From the IMG/VR virus record IMGVR_UViG_3300021478_000018: a DNA stretch of 57,818 bases; one strand, 5' to 3'. Source of the DNA: an uncultured virus (IMG/VR IMGVR_UViG_3300021478_000018). Its lineage: Duplodnaviria; Heunggongvirae; Uroviricota; Caudoviricetes. The position numbers and the translations under genes are program-made. The number at the start of each line of letters is the position of its first letter. The stretch's first letter is position 1. Shown piece after piece: positions 1,285 through 36,298 of this stretch. The notes beneath the pieces were generated by a model. It did not search any database. It saw nothing but the letters and a program-made list of their open reading frames with translations, and was not told where the DNA came from.

Positions 1285-1297
1285 GGAAAAAACTAAA

Positions 1298-1555: not shown

Positions 1556-1580
1556 AGAGCCCGTAGTTACGGGCTCGAAA

Positions 1581-3083: not shown

Positions 3084-3092
3084 AACTTTTTT

Positions 3093-4523: not shown

Positions 4524-4533
4524 AAGAAAATTT

Positions 4534-6048: not shown

Positions 6049-6061
6049 GTAAATAATTTTT

Positions 6062-7576: not shown

Positions 7577-7588
7577 TTAAAAAATTTT

Positions 7589-9210
<1,622 letters not shown>

Positions 9211-9224
9211 GGTTAAAAAACGAA

Positions 9225-10634
9225 ATGCCGAATACTAAGATAGCGACGATTAAAGGTCCGGTTGGGCCGAAAGGGGATACCGGGGATACTGGGTCGACCG
9301 GAAATACTGGGCCGATTGGGGTTACCGGCGGGAAGGGTTTAACCGGGCCCGTCGGGCCGGTCGCGGTAAGCGCGGATACGAATAACGCCGCGACTTTAGG
9401 GAGCGATTCGAAGCTCCTCGTTCCGGCGGTTCCTTTTCCGATCGCCGACGCGACGAAAAACGGCCTCCTCCGGAAGGTTAGCGGGAATACGACCGATCTC
9501 GTCGACGGAACGAATCATACCCAGGATTTTACCGCCGCCCTTAAGCCGACGATCTGGAACGTCCGGCTTAATTCCTACAACGCGATCGGGAACCCGAATT
9601 TCGAGGTCGATCAGGCGAATATCGGCGCGCAGGTTACCGGCGGTCGGGTCGCCGATCGCTGGATCCTCGGGGTTAACGGGACGGCGGTCGTTACCGGGTA
9701 TCAGACTCCGTACGGTAGCGGGGGAGTCGTTATTCCGGGGACGAATTACGTTATTAGTTCCCAGACGGTCCGGCTTTTTATCTCGACGACGCAAGCCAGC
9801 TTTACCGGAAGTAACTACATCCAGTTTTATACCTGGTTAGAGGGGCCGTTCTGGCGGGAGCTTTCGCAAGGGGTTCATTCCCTTTCGATCCTCTGCCAAT
9901 GCTCGGTTTCCCCTTTTACCTTCGCGGTCGCTTTACGCGATATGGGAGCCAGTAGCCAGACGACCCGGAGCCTCGTCCTTCCCTTTACCTATAACGCCGG
10001 AGGAGGGGTTTTACAGCTTCTTACCGCCCCTAATTTACCCGCTTTCCCTTCCGGAAATTTTACGACCGCTCCCGGAGTAGCGAGTCTACAGCTTTCGATT
10101 ACCCCCGCGTGCGGGCCGACTTATAGCGCCCCGACTTCCGGCCCGACCTGGCAGAACGGGAATTTTATCGGCTTTACCGGGCAAGGGAATCTCGCCGCAA
10201 CCAGCGCGGCCTCTCTTTATATCGCTTTCGTCCAGCACGAACCGGGTCCCTATTGTACTCCGCTTATCGATCTTCCTTTCCCGAAAAATTTGCGATCCTG
10301 TCAGCGCTACTTCGCGAAGGGGGCGAGTTATAATGTTAAACTTCCGACGAGCGGTAATAATTATCGTTGGATCGGGAGCCATATCCAGGGTACCACCGCC
10401 GTCCGGTGCAATGTCCATTATCCGGTCGATATGGCGACGAGTCCGGTTGTTACTATGTACGATTACCTCGCGAATCTTAATCAGGTCTACCTAGAGACGA
10501 TCGGGAACGTCGCGATCGCTTCGGCGGGAGGCGACTCCGCTGGGATACTTTCGGTTGCCTTATCCGCCGCCCAGACGACTACCTATCAAGGGTCGGCGGT
10601 TCTAGGCCAGTGGAAGGCGGATACCGGCTGGTAG
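9225..10634 (+). CDS. Tail fibre / receptor-binding paralogue 5
   Basis: Start moved to ATG 9225 (MPNTKIATIKG) by comparison with paralogues; ends ADTGW. Confidence 0.8.
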   Translation: MPNTKIATIKGPVGPKGDTGDTGSTGNTGPIGVTGGKGLTGPVGPVAVSADTNNAATLGSDSKLLVPAVPFPIADATKNGLLRKVSGNTTDLVDGTNHTQDFTAALKPTIWNVRLNSYNAIGNPNFEVDQANIGAQVTGGRVADRWILGVNGTAVVTGYQTPYGSGGVVIPGTNYVISSQTVRLFISTTQASFTGSNYIQFYTWLEGPFWRELSQGVHSLSILCQCSVSPFTFAVALRDMGASSQTTRSLVLPFTYNAGGGVLQLLTAPNLPAFPSGNFTTAPGVASLQLSITPACGPTYSAPTSGPTWQNGNFIGFTGQGNLAATSAASLYIAFVQHEPGPYCTPLIDLPFPKNLRSCQRYFAKGASYNVKLPTSGNNYRWIGSHIQGTTAVRCNVHYPVDMATSPVVTMYDYLANLNQVYLETIGNVAIASAGGDSAGILSVALSAAQTTTYQGSAVLGQWKADTGW

Positions 10635-10651
10635 TAGTAGTAAAAATTTTT

Positions 10652-12055
10652 ATGCCGAATACGAAGATCGGGAACGTTCGGGGAGCGAAGGGGACGAAAG
10701 GGGCGACCGGCGGGACCGGGAATACCGGCTCGCAGGGGCCCCCGGGGAATACCGGCTTAACCGGAGCGACGGGGCTTCCCGGCCCCCGGGCGGTTAGCGC
10801 GGACGCGAATAATAAGGCGGTCCCCGGCTCGGATAGCCTCGTTTACGTCGCTACGCCGTCCGTCGCTTTAGCTAATCCTTCGGCGAACGGCCTTCTTCGG
10901 ACGGTTAGTGGGAATACGATCGACTATATCGACGGGACTAATAATAGTCAATCGAGCGCCGGGACCGTTTTACCGGTTATTTGGAACGTCCGGACGCGGA
11001 GTTATAACGCCCTTCACAACCCCAATTTCGAGATCGACCAAGGGAATACTACGACTAACTTTATTACGGCGGTACAACCCCGACAGTCGGCGGACCGCTG
11101 GATTCGGGGAAGCGGGGGAAGCGCCGTCGTCGGGACCCGGATCGTCCCGGTAAACTACGTTACCGCTCCGGGTTCCTCCGCCGTTATTACCCGGAGCTAC
11201 CTCGAAATTAACGTCTCGACCGCCCAGGCTAGCCTCGCCGCTACGGACCTTTACATTTTAAATCAAGTTATCGAAGGCGGTAACGCCCGGGCGATGATTG
11301 GGGACGTAACCTCTCTTTCGATCTTAGCGAATAGTAACGTACTCAACGCGAAATTTTCGCTCGCCATTCGCGACTCGACGAATAAAGTCTCCTACGTCGT
11401 TCCGGTAACTTTAACCGGGAATGTCTGGCAACTAATTACCTTTCCGAATATCCCGGTCTTTTCGAGCGCTAATAGCGCCTCTTATCCGCTTACCCCCGGA
11501 ACGATCGGTTATCAGGTCGCGATCGTCCTCGGGGCCGGATCGACCTATACGACTCCGGCGATAAATTCCTGGCAGAACGGGAACTTCCTCGCCGCTCCGG
11601 GGCAAAGCTTTCTCGGAGCGACCGGTTCTCTTCTAATCGCCTTTATCCAGCACGAGCCCGGCCCTTATTGTACTAGTCTAATCGATTGCCCCTTTCAAGA
11701 AAACCTTCTTAATTGCCAACGCTATTTCGCGAAATCGAACGGCTATACCCGGGCGACTCCGACGAATAATGATTGGCAGAATCTAGGCCAGTTTCTCGGG
11801 GCGACGAGCGCCCAGACGACGATCCGCCTAAGTATCGCTTTTCCGGTCGATATGGCGAAAGTTCCGACGATGACTCTTATCGATAACGCGACCAATCTCG
11901 GGACTCTCTACGTCGACGGGGTAGGGGGAAATTTAGCGGCTTCTCCCGGGCTCGTTACGACGAGCCATTGCGGACAGGCCAGCCTAGCGACCGGGGTAGC
12001 TTACCCCGCGAATGCGGCGGTCTTAGGACAATGGCGGGCGGATACCGGATGGTAG
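10652..12055 (+). CDS. Tail fibre / receptor-binding paralogue 6
   Basis: Start moved to ATG 10652 (MPNTKIGNVRG); ends ADTGW. Confidence 0.8.
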   Translation: MPNTKIGNVRGAKGTKGATGGTGNTGSQGPPGNTGLTGATGLPGPRAVSADANNKAVPGSDSLVYVATPSVALANPSANGLLRTVSGNTIDYIDGTNNSQSSAGTVLPVIWNVRTRSYNALHNPNFEIDQGNTTTNFITAVQPRQSADRWIRGSGGSAVVGTRIVPVNYVTAPGSSAVITRSYLEINVSTAQASLAATDLYILNQVIEGGNARAMIGDVTSLSILANSNVLNAKFSLAIRDSTNKVSYVVPVTLTGNVWQLITFPNIPVFSSANSASYPLTPGTIGYQVAIVLGAGSTYTTPAINSWQNGNFLAAPGQSFLGATGSLLIAFIQHEPGPYCTSLIDCPFQENLLNCQRYFAKSNGYTRATPTNNDWQNLGQFLGATSAQTTIRLSIAFPVDMAKVPTMTLIDNATNLGTLYVDGVGGNLAASPGLVTTSHCGQASLATGVAYPANAAVLGQWRADTGW

Positions 12056-12443: not shown

Positions 12444-13451
12444 TTACTTTTTCGCCCCCTCGTCCCATCCGCTAATCGTATGCATATCCTCGATATTTAA
12501 GGTTTTAAACGCTTCGATTATTTTCTGGTACGAGAGGTCGAAAACCGCGACCCATTCCGGGAAGTTCGGCGCTAATTCCGCCGGGAAGGAGGCCGGGACC
12601 GTTTCGAACGGGTAGGCCTTCTTCGCTAACTCGTGCCATCCGCTCGCCTTATTAAAGAAGCCCGCCTTCATTAAGACGCCCCGCTTCTTACCGTAAAATT
12701 TCGAACTCGCGGCGAAGATAAATTCGAGTTCAAGCGTAAGCCGGATATTGCGCTGGTTGTATAAGGAGTCGCTCTTCCAGGCCAGTAGGATACAGTCGGC
12801 TCCCGGAACCGCGTTTACCATTATTTTCTCCCGTTCCCATTCCGGGATCTTTTTCTCGACCCGGTCGAAGGTAAGATCCGAAAGATCTAAGGTCGCGGTG
12901 GGCCGGGCGACCGCTTCGTCCCATCCCGAGATCGTATGCATCGTCTCTACGTCCGGAGTTGTATAAAATAGGCGGTGAAAGATCTGGCGATAGACTTCTT
13001 CCATTACCGGATAAGCTCCCTCCTTCGGTAAATTCCGGAGTGCCATCTTATCGATCGGTCGGGAGGCGTAGGCGAGGAGGTTTTTTATCGCCTCCGGAAG
13101 CGACGATTCCCGGTCGGTTAGTTCCCGGAGTTCGCCGTAGCTCTTTAGTCCTTTTCCCCGGGGAATATCGATTACAAACGCGATATCGTTTTCCCGGGTC
13201 GTATAATTTCCCATCCATCTCATTACGATCCCCGGGACCGCCTCCCCCGGCTTTAACGGGTAATAGTCGCTATCGAAACTAACGAGGAGCCGGTCGTAGT
13301 CCGGGTTGTTATCGCAGTAGAGATCCTTCTTCCCGGCGAGATAGTTTAAGGCGTTATAGAACCCGGCCTTATCGAATTTAAGGGGTTCTTTCCCGTGCCC
13401 GTAGGCGCGGATCGTTAGACTCTCAGTTATTCCGGACGAGGAGCTTTTCAT
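12444..13451 (-). CDS. Two-module protein with two MHTISGWDE tags
   Basis: DVETMHTISGWDE internally and IEDMHTISGWDEGAKK* at the end; overlaps the polyprotein stop by 29 nt. Confidence 0.75.
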   Translation of the reverse strand: MKSSSSGITESLTIRAYGHGKEPLKFDKAGFYNALNYLAGKKDLYCDNNPDYDRLLVSFDSDYYPLKPGEAVPGIVMRWMGNYTTRENDIAFVIDIPRGKGLKSYGELRELTDRESSLPEAIKNLLAYASRPIDKMALRNLPKEGAYPVMEEVYRQIFHRLFYTTPDVETMHTISGWDEAVARPTATLDLSDLTFDRVEKKIPEWEREKIMVNAVPGADCILLAWKSDSLYNQRNIRLTLELEFIFAASSKFYGKKRGVLMKAGFFNKASGWHELAKKAYPFETVPASFPAELAPNFPEWVAVFDLSYQKIIEAFKTLNIEDMHTISGWDEGAKK

Positions 13452-16400
13452 CGGCGTCGATAATCGTTTTACTTTCGTCCCATCCCGAGATCGTATGCAT
13501 CGTTTCGATATCCGGGGTCGGAGTAAAGAAACCGATTACCTCCCGGTAAAGAGCGTCGAGTTTTTGGAAGTGGAAGTTGTCGGTATCCTTAACCGCTTTG
13601 TAGGCGACGTGACTGTAGAAGTAGAGCTTACTCTTGCGAGCGGCCCCCGACGGGGAATAGAGAATAAGGTCTTTTCGAATATCGTCTAAAGTCGGGAAAA
13701 ATTTTTCCTTACTAGAGCCGAAAGACATGCCTATGGTGAAGGTTCCGTGCTTAATACCGACGATATAGTTCGCGTTAAATTTCCCCTCCCTAATCTCCAC
13801 TTCCACGGTTAGCATTAAATGGAAGACGTACTTCCGTCCGCCCTTTCCGGGAACGGTAATCTTCGCTCCGACCTCCCCTCCCGTATTCAACCAGACGGAA
13901 TACTTATACCCCCACGGCCACTCGTCGTAATCCATCTGGACCGCGTCGCCTTTCGTTTCCGCCCATTTCTTTAATTTTTCGAAATCCGCCGGAGTAAAAG
14001 TCGAGCGGGAATTTACGCTCTCGTCCCAACCGCTCATCGTATGCATCGTCTCGACGTCCGGGACGGAATGGAAAAGACGGCGGACGATCTCCGAGTAAAA
14101 GGCCGAGAGCGGCGGAAGAGCGAATTTAAATTTCCGGGCCCGATTCCGGTTAAGGAGAGCTTGTTGATCGATTAAGGTAGGGAGCGAATTAAGCGGCTCT
14201 TTCGCGGTTTTTCCGTAAAGCCGGAGCGACATCGTAAAGCCGTGAAAGAAGAAGTAGCCGGTTGTAAATTTATTATCGTAGAAGATGAGTTGTAGTTTCG
14301 CTTCCCCGGTATCGCGGGTTATCTCGACGAGATCTCCTTCGAAAGCGGAGACGGTAACGCCGTCGGCGGTCTTCGCCCAGGCGACGACGTCTTTAAGCGT
14401 TTCCGGATCGACCGGATAGCCTTCTTCCGGGACCGGGAGATATCTTAGGACCCGCCCTTTCGCCTCTTCGTAAGGGCCGGTACTCTCGGTATCGATAACG
14501 ACTAAGGCGGGGAAGGATCGCGCCCCGAGGATCCGTAAAGCGTCGAAACGATGGCCCCCTTCGAGAATGTAGGGGCCTTCCTTATCGATAATAACGATTA
14601 AAGGATCGATCTCTCCGGAGGCTTTAATCCGTTCGGCGAGATCCCGCGTCCGCTTTTCTTCCGAGACGGAATAAAAGGAGAGTTTCCCCATCGAGTCGAA
14701 GGAGGAAAAGGAGACTTCGCGGATCCCTTTTAAGATTTCGTACTCGTTTAGGGAGGAGCTAATCGATCCCGTATTCGCGATCTTCTCCCCGACGGTCCGT
14801 CCGTCGACTTCCGGCCCGGCTAACGGATATTCCGAATCGTAGTTTCCGGTCCTCTCGGTCATCCGCCGGATTATCGCCTCGTCCCAGCCCGAGATCGTAT
14901 GCATCGTCTCGATCTCCGGGACGTCCGAGGCTCCGACGTTCGCCGCCCGGACGTCGTCGACCGCGACCTCGCCGTCGTAACGCCGGATCGGAGTGAAATA
15001 TTTAACCTTCGCGAAGAGGGCCGTTCCCATATTCGTTTTCTTCCGGACCCGACCGAGAAAGAGAGCCGGGTTTAGCGTCCCGTCGTCCCCGTTCCTTACG
15101 ACGACGTTCGTCCCTCGTTTTAAGGCGTCGAAAGCTTTAAGACTTAGCGGCTTCCACTCCTCCTCCCGGGCTTCGTCCCAGCCCGAGATCGTATGCATCG
15201 TTTCGATCTCCGGAGCCTTAACCTTCCGCATATTCTCGGCTTCCGTCCAAACGAACGTCGTCTCCGCCCCGTCGCTTTTCCGGCTCGCGTGGACGACCGT
15301 AAGACCGCGCTCGGTTTGCTCGACCTTATCGACGATCCAGATATGCTTATTATCCCAGACGAGATACTGGAACTCGTCGCCCGGCGCTAGCCGGTTAAAC
15401 TCCTCCATCGTCATATCCCCTTCCGGAAAATCCTCGTCGTAATCGCGACCTTCGTCCCATCCGGAGATCGTATGCATCGTTTCGATTTCCGGAGGAGCTT
15501 TGACCTCCTTAAAAATTTTTAAGATCTCCCGGTACATCGTCTGGAATTGTTCGAATAGTAAATCCATTCCCGCCGGTAACCCGTAGATATGAGGGAGCTT
15601 CGCCGGTAAACGGGGCGCGGGTACGGTCGCCGTCTTCCATTCTCCTTCGATAAAAGTTCCGAGAAGGATAAACTTTTCCCCGACGTAAAAATGTAATTCT
15701 AACGTTTGTTGCTTATTGCGGCCCGGCGTTAACGACGGCTCTTTAAAAATTACCCAAGACCAACCCCCCGGAAACGACCTCGAATTGGTATTCGAGACGG
15801 GATTAAAGGAAGCTTCCCGCCCTTTCCGGCTTCCTTTCCAACGAGCGATTACCGCTTCTAACTCGGGTAACGCCGCTTCCCAGAGATCCTCGGAGCCTTT
15901 CGTAACGGCCTCGTCCCAGTTTGAAACCGTATGCATCGACGCGATCTCGGGCGTCGGCGGGAAGAGGCGGCGATGGATCTCGGCGTAGAGCCCGGAAAGT
16001 TTACCGAGACTCGGCTCTTTCTTCCGGAATTTACGGAGCGAGTTAATCGTTACCGGACGGATTACCCCGCGTTCTAGCTCGACGAGCGCGGCGTCGAAAT
16101 CGTACTGCTCCGGATGGATAATAAAAGAGACGACCGTTTCGACGAATTGCGGCGGAAGAGCCCCTAATCTTCCCGAAAAGGAACGGGAACTCGCCCCGGA
16201 TTTCGACCGGGGAATCGCTAGCTCGAACCGGCAATAGGTTTTTAACCGTACCCACGACATCGAAATCCAAGCTCCCGGAAAGAGGGTACTCGGGATTTTT
16301 ACCCGGAACGATTCGCCGCTTCGCCCGGCGACCCGGATCGTTTCGCTTTCGAGCGACTTCTCCGCCCATTCCAACGTCGTCTTAAAATCCCGCTCCTCCG

Positions 16401-18450
16401 CCGTTAACGGTTCGCCGGATCTTTCGAAGAGAAGGACGTCGTTCGCGATTATTCCTTCGACGCCGCTCTCGTCCCACCCCGATATCGTATGCATCGACCC
16501 GACCTCGGGCGTCTTAACCTCCTTAAAGAGGCGGACGACTTCGACCCAGAGTTCTTTCCCTTCCGCGAACCGCTCGTCGCCGGTTATCCCTTCGTAGGTT
16601 AACGGGAACCGGTCGGGAAGGATTATCGTCTCCTCGGTTAGGTATTCGGGCGGTTTATCGATCTCTAGCTCGACCCGGATTTCGGCGATCTTCGGGGAAT
16701 TAACCGGGAGCGGGGTTAAGGCGATATTAAAGCCCGGGTCGCCTTCGGCCCGGTAAAGGGTAATACGAGCCGACTGTTCATGGAAAACGATCCGGGGGTC
16801 AATAGCGGAAGCCCGGTGACCAATGCGGCGCCAGTCCCGGTTCGTCATCTCCGAGAAATCCTCGGTCGGGTAACGCCGCGTCCCTTCGTCCCAGTTACTA
16901 ACGGTATGCATAGATCCGATCTCGGGCGGAGGCCGTAAAATAGCGAGGAAACCTTCGTAAGCCACCTTCATCCGCCGGTAAACGCTTCCGGGGATATTCT
17001 CGATCTCCGAAGCGGCCCCGACGTTCGTAATGTAGTCCTCGAAATGATCCGGGGCGGAGGCGTAATCGGGGCCGGGATGACCTTTTTCGAAGATGAGGTG
17101 GATTTCCTCCTGCCCGAAATAGAGTTCCGCCCGGGCGGCGGTATCGGTCGCCCGCCCCCAGTCGAAGGTAAACTCGTACCAGGCGCTCTCCGTCTCCCCT
17201 TTCCGGAAAAGAGCTTCCGCGCTAAATTCTTTCGGGAAATTCCTCCGGGCCCAGTCCGCCGCTCTCTTCCGGTTTTCGAGCGGTACGGTCCAGGTTTCCG
17301 TTAACCTCCGGCGGCTCTCGTCCCAGCCCGAGATCGTATGCATCGTTTCGATCTCGGGGACCGAGGGTCCGGCTACTAGGAATTCGAACATCTTCTTTAG
17401 AAGCGGCGCATAAGGGATAAGATGTTTCGCGGTACGGGAAATCTGTCGTAATTCCCGCCGTAGTTTTCCTTTTTCGCTCGCGCTCGCGAAATAGGTTGGA
17501 TCTCCGGCGGCGGCTTTTAGTAAACTCGGAGCGATAGTTAGGAGATCCTCGAAATCGGGGTCCTTTATCGAATCGAGAATTTCGCTTCGCGAATCGAGTG
17601 GGCTGATCATCCAGCGTTCCCTATTCACATTCAGAGAGGCATAAAAATCGTACTGGAATTCTTTCGGTTGACCGTCGAATTGCTGTACGGAGACCGTTAG
17701 AATCCGGAGCCCGTCTAAGGAGAATAGGTTTTTATCGCTTAGATGTAGAAGGATCTCTAAAAGGACCGGATTCGTCCGGGAAGGGATAGAAATAGAGGTC
17801 TCGACCCCTAACCAAAGACCTCCGCCCCCGCCTTTTATTTTCCACTTCTTCGCTTCGGCGGCGGACTTTAATTCGGCGATATTCCTGGGTGTTATCTCCC
17901 AGTCCACGCTTTCCGTTAACGTCCGGCTCTCGTCCCATCCGCTAATCGTATGCATCGTCTCGACCTCGGGCGCGTTTCCGCCGATTATCGCGACGGTCGA
18001 ATTATAGGCCTCCCGCATCTTCGGATAATCGGGCTCGGTTTTCGGGATCCGGGCGAGGGCGTAGCTCTGGGTCTTATTTAACATATGTCCGAAAAGGAAA
18101 CCGTAGAAGTTCGGGACCGAGATCCTCTTAATTAAGGCGTCGAAATCGGTATCGCCCCGGGTTAAATGAATTTGGGCGTCGATCCGGGTAACGTTTCTCT
18201 TTACGCCTAAAGGGACGGAGGGGAGGGAGAGATGAAACTCGGTATGATCGTCGCCGAAACTAAACGTCATCCATACTTCCCGGTCGGGAAAGCGGCTCGC
18301 GAAGGTAAGTTCGACCGCTCCGGTTTTTCCTTCGAAGACCGGATTGAAGGTGTAGACCTTAAACCCTTTCCGGTTTAAAAGGTCGACCGCCCGGACGAGA
18401 TCTTCGGTACTCGCGACGACTAAGGGTTCCGACGGTTTAAATAAGGGCAT
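13423..18450 (-). CDS. 1675-aa modular polyprotein with ten MHT(I/V/M)S(G/N)WDE tags; includes a ParB/Srx-like domain
   Basis: Ten tags counted in the translation, separating dissimilar segments; IDPLIV..YILEGGHRFDAL ParB-like motif. Confidence 0.85.
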   Translation of the reverse strand: MPLFKPSEPLVVASTEDLVRAVDLLNRKGFKVYTFNPVFEGKTGAVELTFASRFPDREVWMTFSFGDDHTEFHLSLPSVPLGVKRNVTRIDAQIHLTRGDTDFDALIKRISVPNFYGFLFGHMLNKTQSYALARIPKTEPDYPKMREAYNSTVAIIGGNAPEVETMHTISGWDESRTLTESVDWEITPRNIAELKSAAEAKKWKIKGGGGGLWLGVETSISIPSRTNPVLLEILLHLSDKNLFSLDGLRILTVSVQQFDGQPKEFQYDFYASLNVNRERWMISPLDSRSEILDSIKDPDFEDLLTIAPSLLKAAAGDPTYFASASEKGKLRRELRQISRTAKHLIPYAPLLKKMFEFLVAGPSVPEIETMHTISGWDESRRRLTETWTVPLENRKRAADWARRNFPKEFSAEALFRKGETESAWYEFTFDWGRATDTAARAELYFGQEEIHLIFEKGHPGPDYASAPDHFEDYITNVGAASEIENIPGSVYRRMKVAYEGFLAILRPPPEIGSMHTVSNWDEGTRRYPTEDFSEMTNRDWRRIGHRASAIDPRIVFHEQSARITLYRAEGDPGFNIALTPLPVNSPKIAEIRVELEIDKPPEYLTEETIILPDRFPLTYEGITGDERFAEGKELWVEVVRLFKEVKTPEVGSMHTISGWDESGVEGIIANDVLLFERSGEPLTAEERDFKTTLEWAEKSLESETIRVAGRSGESFRVKIPSTLFPGAWISMSWVRLKTYCRFELAIPRSKSGASSRSFSGRLGALPPQFVETVVSFIIHPEQYDFDAALVELERGVIRPVTINSLRKFRKKEPSLGKLSGLYAEIHRRLFPPTPEIASMHTVSNWDEAVTKGSEDLWEAALPELEAVIARWKGSRKGREASFNPVSNTNSRSFPGGWSWVIFKEPSLTPGRNKQQTLELHFYVGEKFILLGTFIEGEWKTATVPAPRLPAKLPHIYGLPAGMDLLFEQFQTMYREILKIFKEVKAPPEIETMHTISGWDEGRDYDEDFPEGDMTMEEFNRLAPGDEFQYLVWDNKHIWIVDKVEQTERGLTVVHASRKSDGAETTFVWTEAENMRKVKAPEIETMHTISGWDEAREEEWKPLSLKAFDALKRGTNVVVRNGDDGTLNPALFLGRVRKKTNMGTALFAKVKYFTPIRRYDGEVAVDDVRAANVGASDVPEIETMHTISGWDEAIIRRMTERTGNYDSEYPLAGPEVDGRTVGEKIANTGSISSSLNEYEILKGIREVSFSSFDSMGKLSFYSVSEEKRTRDLAERIKASGEIDPLIVIIDKEGPYILEGGHRFDALRILGARSFPALVVIDTESTGPYEEAKGRVLRYLPVPEEGYPVDPETLKDVVAWAKTADGVTVSAFEGDLVEITRDTGEAKLQLIFYDNKFTTGYFFFHGFTMSLRLYGKTAKEPLNSLPTLIDQQALLNRNRARKFKFALPPLSAFYSEIVRRLFHSVPDVETMHTMSGWDESVNSRSTFTPADFEKLKKWAETKGDAVQMDYDEWPWGYKYSVWLNTGGEVGAKITVPGKGGRKYVFHLMLTVEVEIREGKFNANYIVGIKHGTFTIGMSFGSSKEKFFPTLDDIRKDLILYSPSGAARKSKLYFYSHVAYKAVKDTDNFHFQKLDALYREVIGFFTPTPDIETMHTISGWDESKTIIDADEKLLVRNN

Positions 18451-18452
18451 TT

Positions 18453-18692
18453 TTAGGCGAACCCCGGTTGGTCGCGGTTAAAGTAAAAATCGCGGTTACT
18501 GTATTTGGTCGTACAGGGGTCGATATGAAAGAAGTAGAGCCAGTATTCGGCGACGGCGAAATGGCCCGCGCACTCGTTACAGAGGGTGAGCGCGGTATCG
18601 GTATCGAGAAATTCGAGCGGGACCGTCTTCCGGCAGACCGGACAGTTCCCTACTCCGGGCTTTCTTAATTTTTTAAGGGCGGTTACTTTCAC
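18453..18692 (-). CDS. Small Zn-finger protein
   Basis: CPVC..CNEC; co-directional and directly upstream of the polyprotein. Confidence 0.5.
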   Translation of the reverse strand: MKVTALKKLRKPGVGNCPVCRKTVPLEFLDTDTALTLCNECAGHFAVAEYWLYFFHIDPCTTKYSNRDFYFNRDQPGFA

Positions 18693-18744
18693 TCACTCCT
18701 CTTTTTCTTCCTCTAGCTACCCGAGGAGAATAAATACGAAAAAT

Positions 18745-19053
18745 ATGCCGAAGAAGATCCCGCCGAAAACGAACCATATTATCGTCGGATTTAGTTTCCC
18801 GTCCGAACGCGATCCCTCGGAAATGGTTACCGGAACGACCCGGTACAGTATCTGGTTGTCGATGTCGAGCCAGCTTTACGCCCGGTTCCTTACGGCGGCG
18901 GGCGTTAATCCCTCGAAATCGGAAGCCGAACGGTTCGCGACCGTGGCTTTTGAGTTGACCGATATTTATCTTAAAAAGCTCGATAGCGAGGTCGCGAAAG
19001 ATATCGAATCCTTTCCTCCTCCGCCGCCGGTCGCTTCGAAGAATTCCGCGTAG
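18745..19053 (+). CDS. Hypothetical protein
   Basis: Start placed at MPKKIPP (ATG 18745) after GAGGAG and an A-rich leader. Confidence 0.5.
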   Translation: MPKKIPPKTNHIIVGFSFPSERDPSEMVTGTTRYSIWLSMSSQLYARFLTAAGVNPSKSEAERFATVAFELTDIYLKKLDSEVAKDIESFPPPPPVASKNSA

Positions 19054-19079
19054 AGAAAGAAAGAAAGAAAGAGAGATGA

Positions 19080-19334
19080 ATGGCGAGGTATTACGTATTA
19101 CTCTCCGAAGTAGCTCGGAAAGCGCGTAAGACTTATGTTTGCTGTCATTGCGCGGAGCCGATCGTTAAAAATGAAAAATACATCTTTACCTCGATCGCGA
19201 TCGCGGGCACGGTCCAGGCGGACCGTTGGCATGAAGATTGCCGGGGCGCGGTCGAGCGCTGGGAAGAGAAAAATTGGCCCGGCTGGACGCCGGGAAAATA
19301 CCGGCGGGGGACGGTAAGGAGGCGGTGGGGGTAA
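19080..19334 (+). CDS. Small Zn-ribbon-like phage protein
   Basis: RKARKTYVCCHCAEPI..RWHEDC. Confidence 0.6.
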   Translation: MARYYVLLSEVARKARKTYVCCHCAEPIVKNEKYIFTSIAIAGTVQADRWHEDCRGAVERWEEKNWPGWTPGKYRRGTVRRRWG

Positions 19335-19356
19335 GGAAGCGGTTCTTATAGGAAGT

Positions 19357-20508
19357 ATGCGCATCGCAGCGATCTACTTTCCGACGTCGAGCGTCGGTGG
19401 GATTAATAGCGTTCTCGTCGCCCTCCGGAAGGCCGCCCTCGACGAGGGGGATACCTTCGAGGTTATCGAGTCCGGGATCCAGGCGACCGTCTCGGCGGGA
19501 AAATTCGCCGAACCGGTCTTAATCCGGGGCGGGGATACCTTTATTACGGTCCACGGTCGCGCCTCGCATCATCCCTCCCAGATCGCCGATACCCGCCGAT
19601 TTTTAGAGGAGAATTACGACGCTCTTTATTTCGCCTATCTCGTCCCCCATCCGACAAAGGACTACCTCGAACCTTTCTTCCTAGAGCTTTATACCGCGAC
19701 CCGGCTACCGAAGGTCGCCTTTATTACCGATGCGTACTGGGATACGTATGCGGAGTGGGGCGTCGAGGCGCTCCCCTGGGTAGCGAAAACGTTCGTTACG
19801 AACCCGGCTTACGCGGAGCCGATTATCGCCGCCGGGCATGCGGTCGAAGCGACGAATACCCCGTTCTACCCGTTACCGGTCGACCCGGAGATCGGGCGTT
19901 CGGAGGAGCCGTATGCCGTCTGGACGTCCCAGTGGAAGCAGATTAAGTCGGTAAATCAGCTCGTCCCGGTTATCCCGGCGATAAGCGAAGCGGTTAAGTT
20001 CGACCTTTTTAGTAACGGGATCCGTTACTATCAGTTCCGCTGTAAGAACCCCGAGAAACGGGATCCGCTCTATGAAGATTGGTACCGGGCGGTCGGGACC
20101 GATTACTTCGGCGGGCCGGAGTTTAACGGTTCGGGCCGGGCCGACTTCTACGGGTATCAGCCGCTGGAGATGATCCCGAATATTTTATCGGTCGCGTGGT
20201 GGATGCTCGACTGGCAGGGCCTCCATAAGCCCCGGCATAAGGCCTATGTTAACGGGAGCTATAATTGTACGGCGATCGAGGCTCTTTACTACGGGGCGTG
20301 CCCTCTACTGGCCGAACAGGCCCGTAAATCTTCCCTCCCGAAGGATACCTTCTTAACGATCGCGAAAGCGGAGGAAGCTGCGCCTTTACTCCGGGAGTCC
20401 GCCGAATTCGCGCTCGATCCCGATCGCCGGGCGCACGCCCGCGAATACGTTAACGACGTCCACCACGCCCGGATCCTTTACGGAAAAATTAAGAATGCTT
20501 TCGGCTAA
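19357..20508 (+). CDS. Glycosyltransferase (GT-B-like, divergent)
   Basis: N-terminal MRIAAIY..GGI and C-terminal CTAIEALYYGACP (ExxxxG motif of GT-B enzymes). Confidence 0.65.
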   Translation: MRIAAIYFPTSSVGGINSVLVALRKAALDEGDTFEVIESGIQATVSAGKFAEPVLIRGGDTFITVHGRASHHPSQIADTRRFLEENYDALYFAYLVPHPTKDYLEPFFLELYTATRLPKVAFITDAYWDTYAEWGVEALPWVAKTFVTNPAYAEPIIAAGHAVEATNTPFYPLPVDPEIGRSEEPYAVWTSQWKQIKSVNQLVPVIPAISEAVKFDLFSNGIRYYQFRCKNPEKRDPLYEDWYRAVGTDYFGGPEFNGSGRADFYGYQPLEMIPNILSVAWWMLDWQGLHKPRHKAYVNGSYNCTAIEALYYGACPLLAEQARKSSLPKDTFLTIAKAEEAAPLLRESAEFALDPDRRAHAREYVNDVHHARILYGKIKNAFG

Positions 20509-21076
20509 CGGCGATGACGGAGAAGGGACGCATCTTATCGTCGTCGAGCCCCACGCCGACGACGCTTATCTCTCGCTCCACGATCATCTTGTCCGGTGGA
20601 AGAAACGGGGTTTTACGATTACGATCTTAACGGTGCAGAGCGCCGTTAAAAACCGGGCCGCCGAAGCCCGGACCTACGCCGATACGCTCGGGGTAAAGTG
20701 GCTCGGACTCGGGTTCGATTACGGGGAGCTACCGGAAAAGATCGATTTCTCCCTCGTTCCCGGCGATTACTCGGAGACCCGCCGGATTATCTCCCCGCTC
20801 GGCCTCCAGCATCCCGACCATATCCATATCCGCCGGATCCTCCGGCCCGACCTCGTTTACTTCGATATCCCGTACGCTTTTAAGCAGAAGAACCAAGACA
20901 CCCTTAACGCCGCTTTAACGAACCGGCTCTTCGACTCTTTCTACGTCCCCCACCATTCTAAACGGGAGAAAAAATATTGGGGCGTCTTTAAGTCCCAGTC
21001 CGGCTTCTTTTTCTATAACGATCCGGTAACGCTTAGTAAGATGCCGGAGATAACGCTCGTTCCGGAGAGTACTTAA
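20495..21076 (+). CDS. PIG-L/LmbE family de-N-acetylase
   Basis: VVEPHADD and HPDH metal-binding motifs; overlaps the glycosyltransferase stop. Confidence 0.8.
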   Translation: MLSANGDDGEGTHLIVVEPHADDAYLSLHDHLVRWKKRGFTITILTVQSAVKNRAAEARTYADTLGVKWLGLGFDYGELPEKIDFSLVPGDYSETRRIISPLGLQHPDHIHIRRILRPDLVYFDIPYAFKQKNQDTLNAALTNRLFDSFYVPHHSKREKKYWGVFKSQSGFFFYNDPVTLSKMPEITLVPEST

Positions 21077-21088
21077 AAAGCAAGCGGT

Positions 21089-21268
21089 ATGCCCGAGCAG
21101 CGACAAGTACAGCGACGTCCTCCTTCGACGGTTCCTAGATCGCCGCTAGAGGGCGGCGGTCCGTCCGCGCCGGACGTCCGGAAACCGGATACCGAAGAGA
21201 TCCTTAGACGGTTACGGCGGGTCGCGCCGAACGCCGCGAAACGTTTCCGTCAACGCTCCGGCGAATAG
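21089..21268 (+). CDS. ubact: UBact-like prokaryotic ubiquitin-like protein (Pup-like)
   Basis: 59 aa, not in the ORF track; hand translation MPEQRQVQRRPPSTVPRSPLEGGGPSAPDVRKPDTEEILRRLRRVAPNAAKRFRQRSGE*; ends with the R[ST]G[EQ] UBact signature. Confidence 0.85.
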   Translation: MPEQRQVQRRPPSTVPRSPLEGGGPSAPDVRKPDTEEILRRLRRVAPNAAKRFRQRSGE

Positions 21269-21272
21269 GGCT

Positions 21273-21941
21273 TTAGTCGTCCCAGGCCGAGATCTCGTGC
21301 ATCGTCTCGACGCCGTAAATCCGGCTTCTTAGCTTCGGTTTCGGCGACCGCTTCCCGGTCTCTTTAAGAAAGACGGCGGCGAGGGCGATCTCTTCTTCGA
21401 GCGACGGTTTTGCGGAGAGTTTCCTTCGTCTCTCGTCCCAGCCGCTTATCGTATGCATCGTTTCGACGCTCGCCGGAGGGTTAAGCGCGTCGACGAACCC
21501 GTTAAAGACCCGTTCCGCCTCCGGGTAGACCGGGCTCTTTAGGAAAGCTTCCCCGATCTTCGCTTCGGCGTCCCGAGAACTCCGGCCCCGTTTCGCGATC
21601 CCTTCGGCGAGGATTTTAAAGTAATCCGGGACGTTCGGGCGTAAGACCCGACCGTTAACCGGCGGCGCGGTCCGAGTCCCGGTAAAGAGCTTAATTTCGG
21701 CGTAAACCCCGGGCGGATCCTCTTGTTCCTCGAAGCTAATCGCGACGACCTTATTTTTAAACCGGGCCGTCCCCGTCGGGGCCGGTCCGCCCCGGGTAAA
21801 GGTCGCCTCGGCGAACTCGTAACCGCCGGTCTTCTTCGAGATCGTAAAAACGTCGAGGCCGGGCCGCTTCTGCCCCAAGAGCCACTTACAAGCCTCCGAA
21901 AAGAATTCCAGAGGAATAACGTTCCGTTCCAGCCCGGCCAT
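21273..21941 (-). CDS. Hypothetical protein with two tags
   Basis: SVETMHTISGWDE internally, GVETMHEISAWDD* at the C-terminus. Confidence 0.75.
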   Translation of the reverse strand: MAGLERNVIPLEFFSEACKWLLGQKRPGLDVFTISKKTGGYEFAEATFTRGGPAPTGTARFKNKVVAISFEEQEDPPGVYAEIKLFTGTRTAPPVNGRVLRPNVPDYFKILAEGIAKRGRSSRDAEAKIGEAFLKSPVYPEAERVFNGFVDALNPPASVETMHTISGWDERRRKLSAKPSLEEEIALAAVFLKETGKRSPKPKLRSRIYGVETMHEISAWDD

Positions 21942-22461: not shown

Positions 22462-23892
22462 TTAGAAACTTCCGGTTAACGCGGCGTACGCCCACGAATT
22501 TTGGGCGGTGCAATAGATCCAGAAGTTATTACGGCCCGCGTCTTGGGAGATCGTTTCCATTCCCGGAAGCCCCGGATAATAGCCGCCGGTCGGCGGAGCG
22601 CCGAAGACGCCTTGGCCGAAGCTGGTAAGGGCGAAGCGCATCCAGGTATTAAGGGCGACGGAGACGTAAAAATAGGAGCCGTCGGTGTAGGTGTATCCCG
22701 GAGGGACGGCGGCGGTCGCGGCGAAGGGCGTTCCTCCGGCCCAGGTCGCGAGGGCGATCCGGTACCAATGGTTAGCGCCGACTAATCCGGTACAGCAGAC
22801 ATAAAAATAGTTCGCGTCGTAGGAAGTTTGCCCGATGTTGCCCGCCGCCGAGGAGTTCGCCGGAACGGCTACCCAAGGCCGGAAAGGAACGGAAAGAACC
22901 CGCCGCCAATTGGAAACGCCGTAGAAGTAGTAATGGTCGTAGCCGGAGGCCTCGGTTTGCGCCGGGTTCGTATCGGTCGTATTCGGGAGCGGGATAAAGA
23001 CGCCGCGTTGAGGAGGGACGTTAATAATCGAGGACCATTGCGGCGGCGGGATACTCGCGATCGCCGAATCGATATAACCTTTCGTCGCGCCGTCGGTCGC
23101 GAGCCCGGGCGAGCCGAGAAGGGTAATTCGATTCCCATTGGCGGAGATCGGGCCGTTCGGGAGGGCGAGGGTATTAAGGGGGACGGCTTGGATCGCGCTC
23201 GTTAGATCGGAGATCGTCGAGGAGAGCTGGGTTCCGGAATGATTCGTCCGGTTTAGGTAATAGGAAGGGGAAACCCCGGCGAGGAGGGTCGCCGTAACCG
23301 CGTAATTTACGATCCCGGTCGCTCCGGGATCGTAGACCGCGAGGGTAAGGAATTTCGAACTCGTCGCCGCGACGTTATTATCGACGTAGCGTTTCGTTAC
23401 GGCGTCGTTCGGGTTCGCCGGATCGGCGAGGTTAATAATCGGGAAGGCGTTTAGATCGATCGAGTTCGCCGGTTTCGCGAAAACGTCGAGCGAGTTCGAG
23501 CGGATATTCGCCGTAAGATCGCTAATCGTACTCGAAAGCTGGGTTCCGGTCGCGTTTACCCGGTTTAAATAGTAGGGCCCGGAGTTACCTCCGAGAAGGA
23601 TCGCGTTCGCGGCGACCGAGGCCGTCGCGGCGTTCCCGGCGAGCGGCCCGTTAAAAGCGGAGGCCGTTAACGCTCCGGCTCCGTCCCGGAGGGCGAGCGT
23701 ATTCGGGTTCGCTAACGTACTCATCGGCGCTCCCATAACCAGGGTCGCCGCCCCGTTCCAGCATTCCACAAACCCCGTCGCGACGTTTAGATAGAGCCGC
23801 CCCGCCGGGCCGGAAGTAACCGCCGGGACCGTCTCTAAACGGAAATTTAGAGAAGGAATATTGTTAAAGTTAACGGGGTAAACGACTAACAT
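22462..23892 (-). CDS. Virion structural / fibre-like protein
   Basis: Duplicated YYLNR..GTQLSSTISDLT, ADP..DAVTKRYVD and YDANYFYVC..W.R.AL repeats typical of fibres. Confidence 0.7.
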   Translation of the reverse strand: MLVVYPVNFNNIPSLNFRLETVPAVTSGPAGRLYLNVATGFVECWNGAATLVMGAPMSTLANPNTLALRDGAGALTASAFNGPLAGNAATASVAANAILLGGNSGPYYLNRVNATGTQLSSTISDLTANIRSNSLDVFAKPANSIDLNAFPIINLADPANPNDAVTKRYVDNNVAATSSKFLTLAVYDPGATGIVNYAVTATLLAGVSPSYYLNRTNHSGTQLSSTISDLTSAIQAVPLNTLALPNGPISANGNRITLLGSPGLATDGATKGYIDSAIASIPPPQWSSIINVPPQRGVFIPLPNTTDTNPAQTEASGYDHYYFYGVSNWRRVLSVPFRPWVAVPANSSAAGNIGQTSYDANYFYVCCTGLVGANHWYRIALATWAGGTPFAATAAVPPGYTYTDGSYFYVSVALNTWMRFALTSFGQGVFGAPPTGGYYPGLPGMETISQDAGRNNFWIYCTAQNSWAYAALTGSF

Positions 23893-28126: not shown

Positions 28127-28573
28127 ATGGCTATAGATGAAAGATCGGCTAAAAACATCGCTACCTTAGCGCCTACAGTGAGACCTCTCGCGGAAAAATT
28201 AATCGAGACGGCTAAAGCGGCGGGAATCAACGTTAAAATTATTAGCGGAACCCGGACCTACGCTCAGCAAAACGCAATCTACGCCCAAGGTCGTACGACG
28301 CCCGGAAAGATCGTTACGAAAGCCCGGGCCGGGCAATCCTGGCATAACTTCGGGATCGCCTTCGATATCGGGATCTTTTCGGCGGACGGTAAAACCTACT
28401 ACGGCGAGCACAAAGATTATAAAACCGTCGGGAAGATGGGGGAAGAATTAGGACTGGAGTGGGGCGGGGACTGGAAGTTCGTCGACGAGCCCCACTTTCA
28501 GTATAACCCGAAGAAATACGTCCTTTCGGAGATGAAAAGACGTAAAGACGCCGGGGAGGATTTATTCGCCTAA
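28127..28573 (+). CDS. Endolysin, M15 family L-Ala-D-Glu peptidase
   Basis: SGTRT..Q..YAQGR, SWHNFGIAFD, EWGGDW..DEPHFQ. Confidence 0.9.
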   Translation: MAIDERSAKNIATLAPTVRPLAEKLIETAKAAGINVKIISGTRTYAQQNAIYAQGRTTPGKIVTKARAGQSWHNFGIAFDIGIFSADGKTYYGEHKDYKTVGKMGEELGLEWGGDWKFVDEPHFQYNPKKYVLSEMKRRKDAGEDLFA

Positions 28574-33262: not shown

Positions 33263-36200
33263 ATGAGAGCCCTAATTAGCGCTGACTGGCAACTACAGAA
33301 TTATCCGGAATTTAGTAGCTTAGTCGGGGAAGGGTATAACCGGAGACTCGTCGATTTCCTCGCCGGGATTACGGCGATTCTAGAGGAGGAACGGCCCGAC
33401 GTTTTAATCGTCGCGGGGGATCTCTGGAATAATAAGAGCGTAACCGAGAACGACCTCGGCGACTACGTCCATAGGACCTTTCTCGGCTGGAAGGAGAACC
33501 TCCTCGGCGAGATTATTCTTCTCCTCGGGAATCACGACGTCGCCCTCCTAAGCGCGAAGATCCACTCTCTTAGTCAGTTCCAGAGCTACTGCACCGTTAT
33601 AACCGAGGCCCGGGTTTACCGCGATCTCGCCTTTTCCCCTTGGAGGCCGACCCTTTCGGCGATCGAGGAAGATCTTAATTTCCTCGCCGGATCGGGCGCG
33701 GAGACCCTCGTCGGGCACTGGACGGTTAAAGGGGCGGCTTCGGGTTCTACTTTAATGCCGACCGGGGTCGACCCGGAGTTTCCGGCGCTCGGGAAATTTA
33801 AACGGGTCCTTCTCGGCGATATCCATCTCTCCCAGAAGATTGGCGATAACATCCTTTATCTCGGGAGCCCGAGTCAGATCAATTTCGGGGAAGAGAATAA
33901 CGTAAATTTCGTCTGGCTCCTGGATACCAAGACGGATTTTCTCCGGGCGATCCCGACCTCTTTCCCCCAGTTTAAGACCGTCTCGACGATCGAGGAGGCG
34001 GAACGTTACCGGGCGGAAGGTTACTTCGTCCGGATTAAGGCCGGGTCGCGGGAGGATATGGCGAAAGGGAACGCCGAAGGGTTCCGGGTCGAGCAGGACT
34101 TTACCGAAAGCGTCGCTTCCGAGGCCCGGGGGATCGTTAATAACGTTACCGAAGCGGTCGTCGCCTACGCGGTAACGAATAACCGGGAAGATCTCGCCGA
34201 GCCGGGGTTAAAGTTTCTCGAAGGGGCGTTAGCGGCCCGGACGGTCCCGGCGGTCGAGGTCGCTCTCGAACGCCTCCACGCCGAGAATTTTCTTAGTTAC
34301 GCCGATCTCGATCTCGATTTCCGCGATCCCGCGACCGGCCTCGTCGTTATCCACGGCGAGGTCGTCGCCGACGTCGCCTACGATTCGAACGGGGCCGGGA
34401 AGACGGCTCTTTACGAGGCGATCTATTACGGGCTCTTTGGGACGACGCTTCGGTATGGGATCCGGAAGGACGCGACGATCCGGAACGGGGAAAAGAAGAA
34501 CGCCGTCCGGCTCGAACTAACCGTCCGGCGGGCTACCGGCGCTTCCGACCGGCTTTTAATCGACCGGCCCCGGCCCGGGGCCGTCCGGCTTACCTTAAAC
34601 GGGATCGAGATTACTAGTTCCGACGCTCTTTTAACCCAGAAGAAAATTCTAGAGCTAGTCGGCGAACCGGCTTTTTTCCTCCGGATCTCTTTCCTCGGGC
34701 TCCACTACCACCCTTCCTTCCTCCGGTTAAGCGATCCGGAAAAGAAGAAGTTTATCGATCAGTTTTCCGGTCTCGACGTCTTTACCTCGGCCCGGGAACT
34801 CGTAAACGACGAGCTTAAGCGGTTAGAGCTAGAAGCCCGGCGGCTCGAAGTCGAGGAGAACCGGTACGACGAGCGGAGAACCCTCCTAGAAGCGTCTTTA
34901 GCCGAGGCGGAAGGCTCTTTAGCTCTTTTCCGGGAACGCGAGCGTAAACTCACGGAGGAACGCGAGAACGAGGTTCGGGAACTTAAGGCCGAACTCGCCC
35001 GGCTCGCCGAGCCGGTCGTTCTTCCTTATCCCGACTTTAAAGCGCCCGAGTTACCGGAACCGGTTAAGCCGGATACCGAGGATCCGGAGCCGATCCGGAG
35101 CCGGATCGCCGAGAACGAGACGGTTTTAGAGGAGGTCCGGCCCGCGCTCGCCGAACTCCGCGAATCCCATCACGCCCAACTCCAGCCCCTCTTCCGGAAA
35201 GAGGAAGGAATCTTAAACGAGATCGCGACCCTTCAGAACTCGACCCAGCGGGAAGTCTGCCCGATGTGCAACCGGAAGTTCGACGACGCCGAGAAATACA
35301 ACCGTCACGTCGCGAAGAAGGTCGGCGAATTAACCGGGGTTTCGGCTTTAGCTCACGCCGAGGTCGAGGCCCTTAAGAACCGTTTAGACGCGGAACTCGC
35401 GAGTTTTAAAGAGGAGATTAGCGCCGTCGAAAGAATGATTAAATCCGACCGGATAACCCTCGCCGAGATTGAGGCGCTCTACGCTCGATTCGACCGGGAG
35501 ACCAACGCTTACCTTAACGCGAGTAAGCGGGCCGCTTTAGAGCATAAGGAAGCGTGCAACGCGGTCGACCGGCGGAACGACGCCGCCCGGCAGGCTTACG
35601 ACCTTCAGGTCCAACGGATCAACGACCATCTCCGCTCTTACGAGAAGATCCGTCCGGCGGAACCGACCGATCTTCTCGCCCATATCGAGACGTTAAGAGC
35701 TAGTTTTTCCGACGTTACGGAGAAGATTAGCGATCTCGCGAGCCGGAAAGAAGAGCTAATCCGGGGCCGGGCGGATCTAGAGTTTTGGGTCGCCGGGTTC
35801 GGTAACTCGGGTTGTAAGAGTCTCCTCTATACCAACCTCATAGATAGTTTAAACCGGGAGCTAGCGGATATCTGTAACGTCATCTCGGGAGGAGCTTTAG
35901 CTCTTCGGCTTCTTCCTTACGCCGAGACGGCCCGGGGCGACGTCGTCGAGAAGATAAGCCTCGAAGCGGTTAACTATCTTGGGGCCGATATTTTCGACGG
36001 CGATAGCTTAGGAGAGCAGAACCGGATCGATATCGCGGTCGCTTTCGCGCTCCGCCGGGTCCTCCAGACCTTCTCCGGTTACTCGTCGAACTTCCTCTTT
36101 ATCGACGAACCGTTTACCGGTCTCGACCGGAGCGGGAAGACGGCGGTTTACGCCCTCCTTAAGACGGAAGCGGAACGGGCTCTCGTTCTCGTTACCGACC

Positions 36201-36298
36201 AGGAGAAGGCGACGAAAGGGGAAACCGATTGTCGGGTTTGGACGGTTACGAAAGCGAACCGGATCTCGGTCTTATCGGCCCCGGATCGCGACCGCTAG
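33263..36298 (+). CDS. Fused SbcD/Mre11 nuclease and SbcC/Rad50 ATPase
   Basis: Phosphoesterase motifs ADWQ, AGD, GNHD, GH, GDIH; Walker A SNGAGKT; coiled coil with CPMC hook; SLGE signature; LFIDE Walker B. Confidence 0.9.
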   Translation: MRALISADWQLQNYPEFSSLVGEGYNRRLVDFLAGITAILEEERPDVLIVAGDLWNNKSVTENDLGDYVHRTFLGWKENLLGEIILLLGNHDVALLSAKIHSLSQFQSYCTVITEARVYRDLAFSPWRPTLSAIEEDLNFLAGSGAETLVGHWTVKGAASGSTLMPTGVDPEFPALGKFKRVLLGDIHLSQKIGDNILYLGSPSQINFGEENNVNFVWLLDTKTDFLRAIPTSFPQFKTVSTIEEAERYRAEGYFVRIKAGSREDMAKGNAEGFRVEQDFTESVASEARGIVNNVTEAVVAYAVTNNREDLAEPGLKFLEGALAARTVPAVEVALERLHAENFLSYADLDLDFRDPATGLVVIHGEVVADVAYDSNGAGKTALYEAIYYGLFGTTLRYGIRKDATIRNGEKKNAVRLELTVRRATGASDRLLIDRPRPGAVRLTLNGIEITSSDALLTQKKILELVGEPAFFLRISFLGLHYHPSFLRLSDPEKKKFIDQFSGLDVFTSARELVNDELKRLELEARRLEVEENRYDERRTLLEASLAEAEGSLALFRERERKLTEERENEVRELKAELARLAEPVVLPYPDFKAPELPEPVKPDTEDPEPIRSRIAENETVLEEVRPALAELRESHHAQLQPLFRKEEGILNEIATLQNSTQREVCPMCNRKFDDAEKYNRHVAKKVGELTGVSALAHAEVEALKNRLDAELASFKEEISAVERMIKSDRITLAEIEALYARFDRETNAYLNASKRAALEHKEACNAVDRRNDAARQAYDLQVQRINDHLRSYEKIRPAEPTDLLAHIETLRASFSDVTEKISDLASRKEELIRGRADLEFWVAGFGNSGCKSLLYTNLIDSLNRELADICNVISGGALALRLLPYAETARGDVVEKISLEAVNYLGADIFDGDSLGEQNRIDIAVAFALRRVLQTFSGYSSNFLFIDEPFTGLDRSGKTAVYALLKTEAERALVLVTDQEKATKGETDCRVWTVTKANRISVLSAPDRDR

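Follow-up and report, generated by a model that had tools for sequence, protein, structure and literature searches.

The short ORF at positions 21089-21268 (plus strand) of the window, by which we mean the whole 57,818-nucleotide stretch analysed here, is, as judged by curated family models, a true UBact-family protein, and it is borne by a phage. The window contains the tag only, not a UBact/Pup-type system. Our preferred reading, to which we assign a probability of roughly 0.55, is that, by analogy with Pup, the ligase of the host would use the phage UBact as a ligation-ready tag and that the phage would re-programme host tagging. On the sequences searched, the orphan phage-borne copy is a new genomic setting for a known family, one that is rare but recurrent.

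The UBact gene, which is present in the ORF list, begins with ATG and continues in an intact frame for 59 codons to a TAG stop codon, encoding the 59-residue product MPEQRQVQRRPPSTVPRSPLEGGGPSAPDVRKPDTEEILRRLRRVAPNAAKRFRQRSGE. The initial annotation had recognised a UBact protein, and all of the residues that it quoted are present (GGGP..P.V.KPDTEEILRRLRRV.P..AKRFRQRSGE, then TAG). HMM searches place the product in this family well above the cut-offs of both curated models. Pfam PF20513 (UBact), whose gathering score is 27.8, gives 68.1 bits and an E-value of 5.5e-19, with product residues 19-59 aligned to profile positions 3-43 of 43. The NCBIfam equivalog NF033388 (ubiq_like_UBact) scores 63.4 bits against a cut-off of 35 (E 1.7e-17), with residues 7-59 aligned to positions 4-54 of 54. 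Both matches extend to the final residue, directly after which comes the stop codon. A chance ORF is excluded by these E-values, and the only overlapping ORF of at least 30 aa (20915-21106, minus strand) covers just the first 18 bases of the UBact gene. In Pfam and NCBIfam scans with E-values up to 10, the product matched the UBact models only, and neither of the Pup models (PF05639, TIGR03687). A profile of our alignment A1 searched against the PDB found no Pup chain and no UBact relative (best E 0.84, to unrelated proteins).

The gene has a GC3 of 0.62, the other genes of the window ranging from 0.48 to 0.76. Its leader is A-rich and poor in Shine-Dalgarno sequence, like those of most other genes of the window. 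A scan around the gene returned no promoter-like site, and seven terminator-like sites where 6.7 were expected. Most window genes have A/T-rich leaders with no Shine-Dalgarno sequence, which may point to a host with weak Shine-Dalgarno usage.

The product had been described as a disordered 59-aa protein, and this description holds for the N-terminal half. Residues 1-34 (21089-21190, plus strand) are rich in Pro, Gly and Arg, and AlphaFold2 run on alignment A1 predicts neither helix nor strand in this segment (block pLDDT 58-71). Residues 35-57 (21191-21259, plus strand), however, are predicted to form two helices, 35-45 and 47-57, with pLDDT values of 87-93. This two-helix C-terminal region is the most conserved part of the UBact family. 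At 59 aa the phage protein has the size and layout of a UBact (about 55-70 aa, with a disordered N-terminal and a helical C-terminal half). It begins MPEQ, bacterial copies beginning MPER, MPEQ or MPDQ, and it retains the hallmark residues G24, P25, P28, K-P-D, L39, V45, R54-Q55-R56 and G58. In family, size, MPE-type start, the layout G-P...P...KPD...L...V.P...R-Q-R-[ST]-G-[EQ] and the end at the stop codon, it is the same as cellular UBact.

The presumed ligation end of the protein is R-S-G-E (21254-21265, plus strand; stop codon at 21266-21268), so that the sequence closes ...RFRQRSGE and TAG in agreement with the family ending R-[ST]-G-[EQ]. Among the 106 homologues described below, the termini are RTGQ (57), RTGE (14), RSGQ (9) and RSGE (9), together 89 of 106. 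A terminal Glu is found in 25 of 67 distinct bacterial sequences. R-S-G endings occur at 20 of 80 bacterial loci examined, and 12 of these 20 end in Glu.

Two residues of the phage protein depart from the family. Phe53 (codon TTC, 21245-21247, plus strand) occupies site -7 from the end, where all other members examined have Tyr: 67/67 distinct bacterial sequences and 92/92 canonical-ended representatives, with Phe in none. Ala46 (21224-21226, plus strand) occupies site -14, the Asp of a V-D-P kink between the helices in bacterial copies; Asp is found here in 67/67 distinct bacterial sequences, and the 92 representatives have Asp (86) or Glu (6). These 92 are the 106 matches minus 14 with truncated, read-through or non-canonical ends, and one of the 14 set aside (P0076) also has Ala at site -14. 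A Tyr at -7 combined with Asp or Glu at -14 is a signature taken from our own alignments, not a published criterion, and the phage UBact, with Phe and Ala, lies outside it. Because the curated models are passed by a wide margin, we keep the protein in the family as a divergent member. Judging from sequence, the two substitutions could mean that its function is altered or lost.

The initial annotation had noted that no ligase or proteasome gene accompanies the tag in the window, and our searches agree. Pfam scans of 57 ORFs detected no Pup_ligase (Dop-like/PafA-like), no Mpa/ARC-type ATPase (no match to Prot_ATP_ID_OB or AAA, PF00004) and no 20S proteasome alpha or beta subunit (no match to PF00227). 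When nine proteins from two bacterial UBact operons were compared by tblastn with all six frames of the window, the best E-values for these three groups were 0.46, 0.35 and 0.23, respectively. The absence applies to 57.8 kb of a probably larger genome, elsewhere in which a ligase may lie.

The association of UBact with Pup-ligase/Dop-like and proteasome genes, stated in the initial annotation, is seen in annotated bacterial loci. Three of these (L013, L019, L057) share the gene order proteasome ATPase, Dop-like, UBact, proteasome beta; proteasome alpha and a PafA-like ligase come next in L013 and L057, and a PafA-like ligase was found in L019 as well. A further annotated locus (L008) has a looser layout. 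The best models for the neighbours of bacterial UBact are PafA, Dop, pup_AAA and 20S-alpha, but with scores under the equivalog cut-offs. A whole-genome search found exactly two Pup_ligase genes in each of five bacterial genomes (5/5). Bacterial UBact thus sits between Dop-like and proteasome beta genes, with genes for an Mpa-like ATPase and a PafA-like ligase close by, whereas the phage copy stands alone.

Given that the window has no ligase, unfoldase or proteasome, the tag would act only in a UBact-bearing host, equipped with an Mpa-like ATPase, Dop-like and PafA-like enzymes and a 20S proteasome. Our preferred reading is as follows. Full-length UBact would be an accessory gene of a large soil phage, an orphan set among the virion genes. 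The PafA-like ligase of the host would activate the terminal Glu and attach it to lysines of the proteins to be tagged. A supply of ligation-ready tag made by the phage itself during infection would then shift the host pathway, either towards more tagging or towards tagging with a variant tag. Use of the tag by the host ligase is inferred, as are the time at which it would be made, what would follow for tagged proteins, and the hijacking or jamming of the pathway that the initial annotation proposed.

The Pup system of Actinobacteria (PafA, Dop, Mpa/ARC, PrcAB) provides the analogy, in that phage UBact would be expected to work alike. A 2026 review describes pupylation: a PafA-type ligase couples a small, largely disordered tag by its C-terminal Glu to lysines of substrates, and deamidation by Dop is not required when Pup ends in Glu (PMC13696103). 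The claim that the phage tag would not need deamidation, made in the initial annotation, is sound as regards the R-S-G-E terminus and, by analogy with Pup, would follow from it, as the product ends in Glu. The phage protein differs from Pup in lying outside the Pup sequence family and in ending S-G-E, where Pup ends G-G-Q/E.

Viruses of eukaryotes carry ubiquitin genes, such as baculovirus v-ubi, and rely on the conjugation enzymes of their hosts. Phage UBact would be a prokaryotic counterpart of these genes. The likeness, a virus-borne modifier without conjugation enzymes of its own, is an analogy only; v-ubi has another fold, belongs to the chemistry of an E1-E2-E3 cascade and is found in another domain of life.

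UBact was reportedly described by Lehmann et al. in 2017, in Gram-negative phyla. Its biology is almost unstudied, and the role of the proteasome in Gram-negative phyla is an open question. A tag carried by a phage without the corresponding enzymes would imply that the UBact pathway matters during infection. A single 59-residue protein with natural variant residues could serve as a simple handle on the pathway. The gene is also a clue to the host of an otherwise unassignable soil phage, since that host must possess a PafA-like ligase.

The phage UBact is far removed from all bacterial copies. HMMER searches of 1.84 billion representatives yielded 106 matches with E <= 1e-3, the best of them 59% identical and none reaching 1e-10. 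The maximum identity to any bacterial copy is about 60% (60% over 53 tree columns). A word search of a 5.8-billion-cluster collection found no protein with three 5-residue words in common, and there were no close UBact relatives in IMG/VR (single-sequence query) or in metagenome contigs. Bacterial copies are very uniform, the identical sequence occurring in several species. In a phylogenetic tree, the end branch of the phage UBact measures 1.41 changes per column, compared with a bacterial median of 0.066. On these searches the gene is not a recent capture from any sequenced organism, and the long branch, with the hallmark residues still in place, argues that the phage has carried it under selection for a long time and did not acquire it newly.

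Scanning one genome per species with a pattern identified at least 575 bacterial UBact loci. The best 80 of these (44-62% identity) comprise 62 from Verrucomicrobiota (mostly Chthoniobacterales; one carries just the label 'PVC group') and 18 from Armatimonadota (mostly Chthonomonadales). This distribution fits the earlier proposal that the host belongs to one of the UBact-bearing phyla. The tree does not place the phage UBact in either Verrucomicrobiota or Armatimonadota, the phage branches being long. Compared at the DNA level with 401 Verrucomicrobiota genomes, the window showed no host link: 16 genomes match, the best over 95 bases with 75% identity (E 6.5e-9), which is at noise level. A host from a UBact-bearing phylum is plausible on these sequence comparisons.

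Orphan UBact genes are also present on three IMG/VR contigs (L001, L002, L003), which derive from two phages; both of our alignment-based scans of that collection recovered exactly these three. L001 and L002 are one phage in two samples, with genes for a GH25 endolysin, DpdA and a large terminase; L003 contains a Mu-like head module. The UBact proteins of the three contigs pass the Pfam cut-off (58, 46.7 and 46.7 bits), are 41-49% identical to the window copy and retain Tyr at site -7. There are no Pup_ligase genes in the three records. The window and these contigs have no other genes in common at E <= 1e-6 and represent unrelated phage types. In L001, UBact is 54 aa long and stops at 7582, and a 1120-aa fibre-like gene starts at 7583. 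The gene order in L003 is endolysin, Mu portal, small membrane ORF, UBact, 104-aa ORF, head-morphogenesis protein, protease and major head protein, with the 104-aa ORF overlapping the UBact stop codon (ATGA). Near the conserved N-terminus, the L003 UBact frame (2768-3079) lacks ATG, GTG and TTG alike; it is open back to a TTG, giving 103 aa, and this UBact may have an unusual start codon or an N-terminal extension.

In all three phage lineages (window, L001/L002, L003) the protein ends R-S-G-E, but this agreement in a terminal Glu is only suggestive. Three queries against 50,697 deposited phage genomes found no UBact. Conservation, on which the initial annotation had made its reading depend, is partial: the phage has no close relative among the sequences searched and phages that share the genes preceding UBact lack it (see below), but orphan UBact genes are present in two other lineages. 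Our literature search turned up no publication on UBact or Pup encoded by a phage, although a table in a supplement would escape such a search. In the accessible parts of two papers, UBact is only mentioned with a citation of Lehmann et al. 2017 (PMC11354881; PMC5751360, giving BBRC 483:946).

The departures from the bacterial consensus raise the main alternative, which we consider unlikely, that phage UBact is a decoy or 'dud tag'. It would block one of the host components (ligase, Dop-like enzyme or Mpa-like ATPase), or be ligated into conjugates that escape unfolding, degradation or removal, and phage proteins would be shielded from host tagging. Among the copies counted, the window copy is unique in having Phe at -7 and Ala at -14, both at otherwise invariant sites, and Asp at -14 is missing from all three phage lineages (Ala in the window, Asn and Glu in the other two). 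The phage copies also have very long branches and family-profile scores at or under the bottom of the bacterial range (76.0 for the window, 65.7 for L001 and 76.5 for L003; bacterial copies, 76.7-99.6). That phages of Pup-proteasome hosts are under pupylation pressure and adapt to it is put forward, as an untested idea, in the review cited above (PMC13696103). A pure blocker, however, would need neither an N-terminal half of normal length nor a ligation-ready Glu, and both are kept in all three lineages. P0033, a close relative of the copy in L001, does retain Asp at -14. Phage genes generally evolve fast, so that their divergence carries little weight by itself, and the proteins of the window show no avoidance of lysine beyond the fibre proteins. 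We had considered lysine avoidance as a possible mark of tagging pressure and rejected it: the fibre proteins are the only Lys-poor ones and are equally poor in Arg, and the others contain 4-10% Lys.

A more elaborate scenario can be offered only tentatively, as one that we consider unlikely. Phages of UBact-bearing bacteria may repeatedly have taken up the tag as a weapon, a variant (here with Phe for Tyr and Ala for Asp) being made together with the virion proteins, ligated by the host enzyme, and then handled differently by the unfoldase or the detagging enzyme of the host; this would disarm a tagging response directed at the structural proteins of the phage, or mark its particle proteins. 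If true, it would be the first sign of the Pup/UBact-proteasome pathway as a battleground between phages and bacteria.

A block of genes on one strand, spanning 18586-21268, ends with UBact, and the two genes before it are found in other phages. The first (19357-20508, plus strand) encodes a 383-aa protein without a family match or a relative among solved structures; it may contain a glycosyltransferase-like motif. Its homologues in seven other loci (L004, L088-L093) are 48-57% identical over comparable lengths and 67% identical over one 58-residue fragment. The second gene (20495-21076, plus strand) stops 12 bases before UBact and encodes a 193-aa protein with weak PIG-L/LmbE-like similarity (PF02585, E 0.0017 and 19.3 bits, under the cut-off of 28.2; LmbE-like chains in the PDB, E 0.12-0.45). 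Homologues of this protein, 36-38% identical, come after the 383-aa gene in five other loci. The pair is present in L004 (9950-13026 of a 170,684-bp record rated complete) and in the metagenome loci L088-L091, and partially in L092 and L093; in L004 it is followed by a GT4 glycosyltransferase. The cassette is common to otherwise unrelated phages, and its role is probably the modification of sugars. Neither the whole L004 record nor the examined stretches of L088-L093 encode UBact. Since these cassette-bearing phages lack it, UBact is an addition specific to its lineage, placed after a mobile cassette of two genes.

The existence of such phages would suit a passenger gene, captured from a host and kept as a moron without a role in infection, and so would the rarity of phage UBact, which two pattern scans found on just three IMG/VR contigs and which is absent from the deposited phage genomes. 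We nevertheless regard a mere passenger as quite improbable. The low maximum identity to bacterial copies speaks against recent capture, and the frame, the start codon, the helices and the R-Q-R-S-G-E end are all intact. Moreover, UBact has occurred independently in three unrelated phage types.

The surroundings of the UBact gene were characterised by scanning 57 ORFs of the window against Pfam and 58 against PHROGs. Nine tail-fibre/tail-collar genes lie at 25-12055, and the gene at 22462-23892 is fibre/decoration-like. The window also encodes an M15 endolysin (28127-28573) and a fused SbcD-SbcC (33263-36298; SbcD-like Metallophos and SbcC-like AAA_23 in one 1011-aa ORF), as well as a primase, an HU-like protein, further tail-collar proteins and a helicase (phrog_2488, E 1.5e-91). 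The nearest deposited relatives of the helicase are about 30% identical and belong to large phages, namely Ralstonia phage RsoM2USA (343,806 bp), Tunturiibacter phage Tunturi_5 (308,711 bp) and phages of 155-166 kb; a pattern search of IMG/VR with the helicase found no relatives. A scan of the window found no tRNA genes. The Pfam and PHROGs scans detected no capsid or terminase gene in the window, which is therefore probably a fragment of a large tailed phage.

This setting bears on a further possibility, namely that the host ligase attaches phage UBact to structural proteins, where it would act as a decoration, a cross-link or an assembly signal. UBact lies in a virion-gene module in all three phage lineages: between tail-fibre clusters in the window, abutting the fibre-like gene in L001, and between the portal and head-morphogenesis genes in L003. 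However, the late-operon position of accessory genes is often a matter of expression only. We know of no such modification of virion proteins in any phage, and we rate this role as very improbable.

It is least likely of all, to the point of being negligible, that we are dealing with a chromosomal UBact of the host adjoining a prophage, with a chimeric assembly or with an ORF that arose by chance: the window is indeed only part of a genome, lacking capsid and terminase genes, but against this stand the E-values of the two family models, the absence of any housekeeping or operon-partner gene from the 57.8 kb, and single contigs that bridge UBact and its neighbours. UBact is located more than 20 kb inside phage DNA on either side, and the Pfam and PHROGs scans found no bacterial housekeeping genes in the window. 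Seven sequencing runs contain the stretch, none of them listed as an RNA run, and we compared contigs of four soil-metagenome runs (X1-X4, all DNA). The UBact sequence is identical wherever it is covered, including the Phe53 codon, at which there were no differences in the four runs. UBact and both of its neighbours are spanned by single contigs from X1 (20857-21408), X2 (20910-21941) and X4 (21083-21316). One of the four runs may be the source of the window itself, and all four perhaps belong to one campaign; their agreement is therefore not independent support.

Several other features of the window deserve mention. Eight consecutive paralogous tail-fibre genes at 1581-12055 encode proteins of 465-504 aa, several of which have N-terminal collagen-like repeats. 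This unusually large fibre array hints at a broad or switchable receptor range. The genes for a TET-associated glycosyltransferase (PF20691; 44420-45514), a thymidylate-synthase-like enzyme (50787-52022) and a GT9 glycosyltransferase (52061-53242) stand near the helicase and HU genes; the thymidylate-synthase-like enzyme has 411 aa, with N- and C-terminal extensions. The presence of these three genes suggests that the phage DNA contains hypermodified, probably glycosylated, pyrimidines.

The gene on the other side of UBact is convergent with it (21273-21941, minus strand) and stops 4 bases past the UBact stop codon. It encodes a 222-aa protein without a family match, which contains two VETMH(T/E)IS(G/A)WD motifs. 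A search of a protein atlas gave no usable match, and the only match in IMG/VR, through the short motif, was L094, which has no UBact. The 12-residue motif, (I/V)ETMHTISGWDE, mostly follows Pro and Asp/Glu and is present in ten copies in three minus-strand ORFs of the window: two in a 335-aa ORF (12444-13451), six in a 1675-aa ORF (13423-18450) and two in the 222-aa ORF, one of which forms its very C-terminus. L094 has two more copies (10046-10075 and 10550-10579) and is the sole IMG/VR contig that exactly matches the back-translated pattern. The copies vary at synonymous sites, which indicates that it is the peptide that is conserved; the motif might serve for docking or mark a site of cleavage. 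The repeats account for a depth spike at 21427-21468 in the compared contigs. Finally, the window and the X2 contig disagree at 22 positions and in three indels, all of them from 21384 onwards in the 222-aa gene. Over 20910-21383, including the whole of UBact, there are no differences, a pattern that resembles a recombination boundary between strains.
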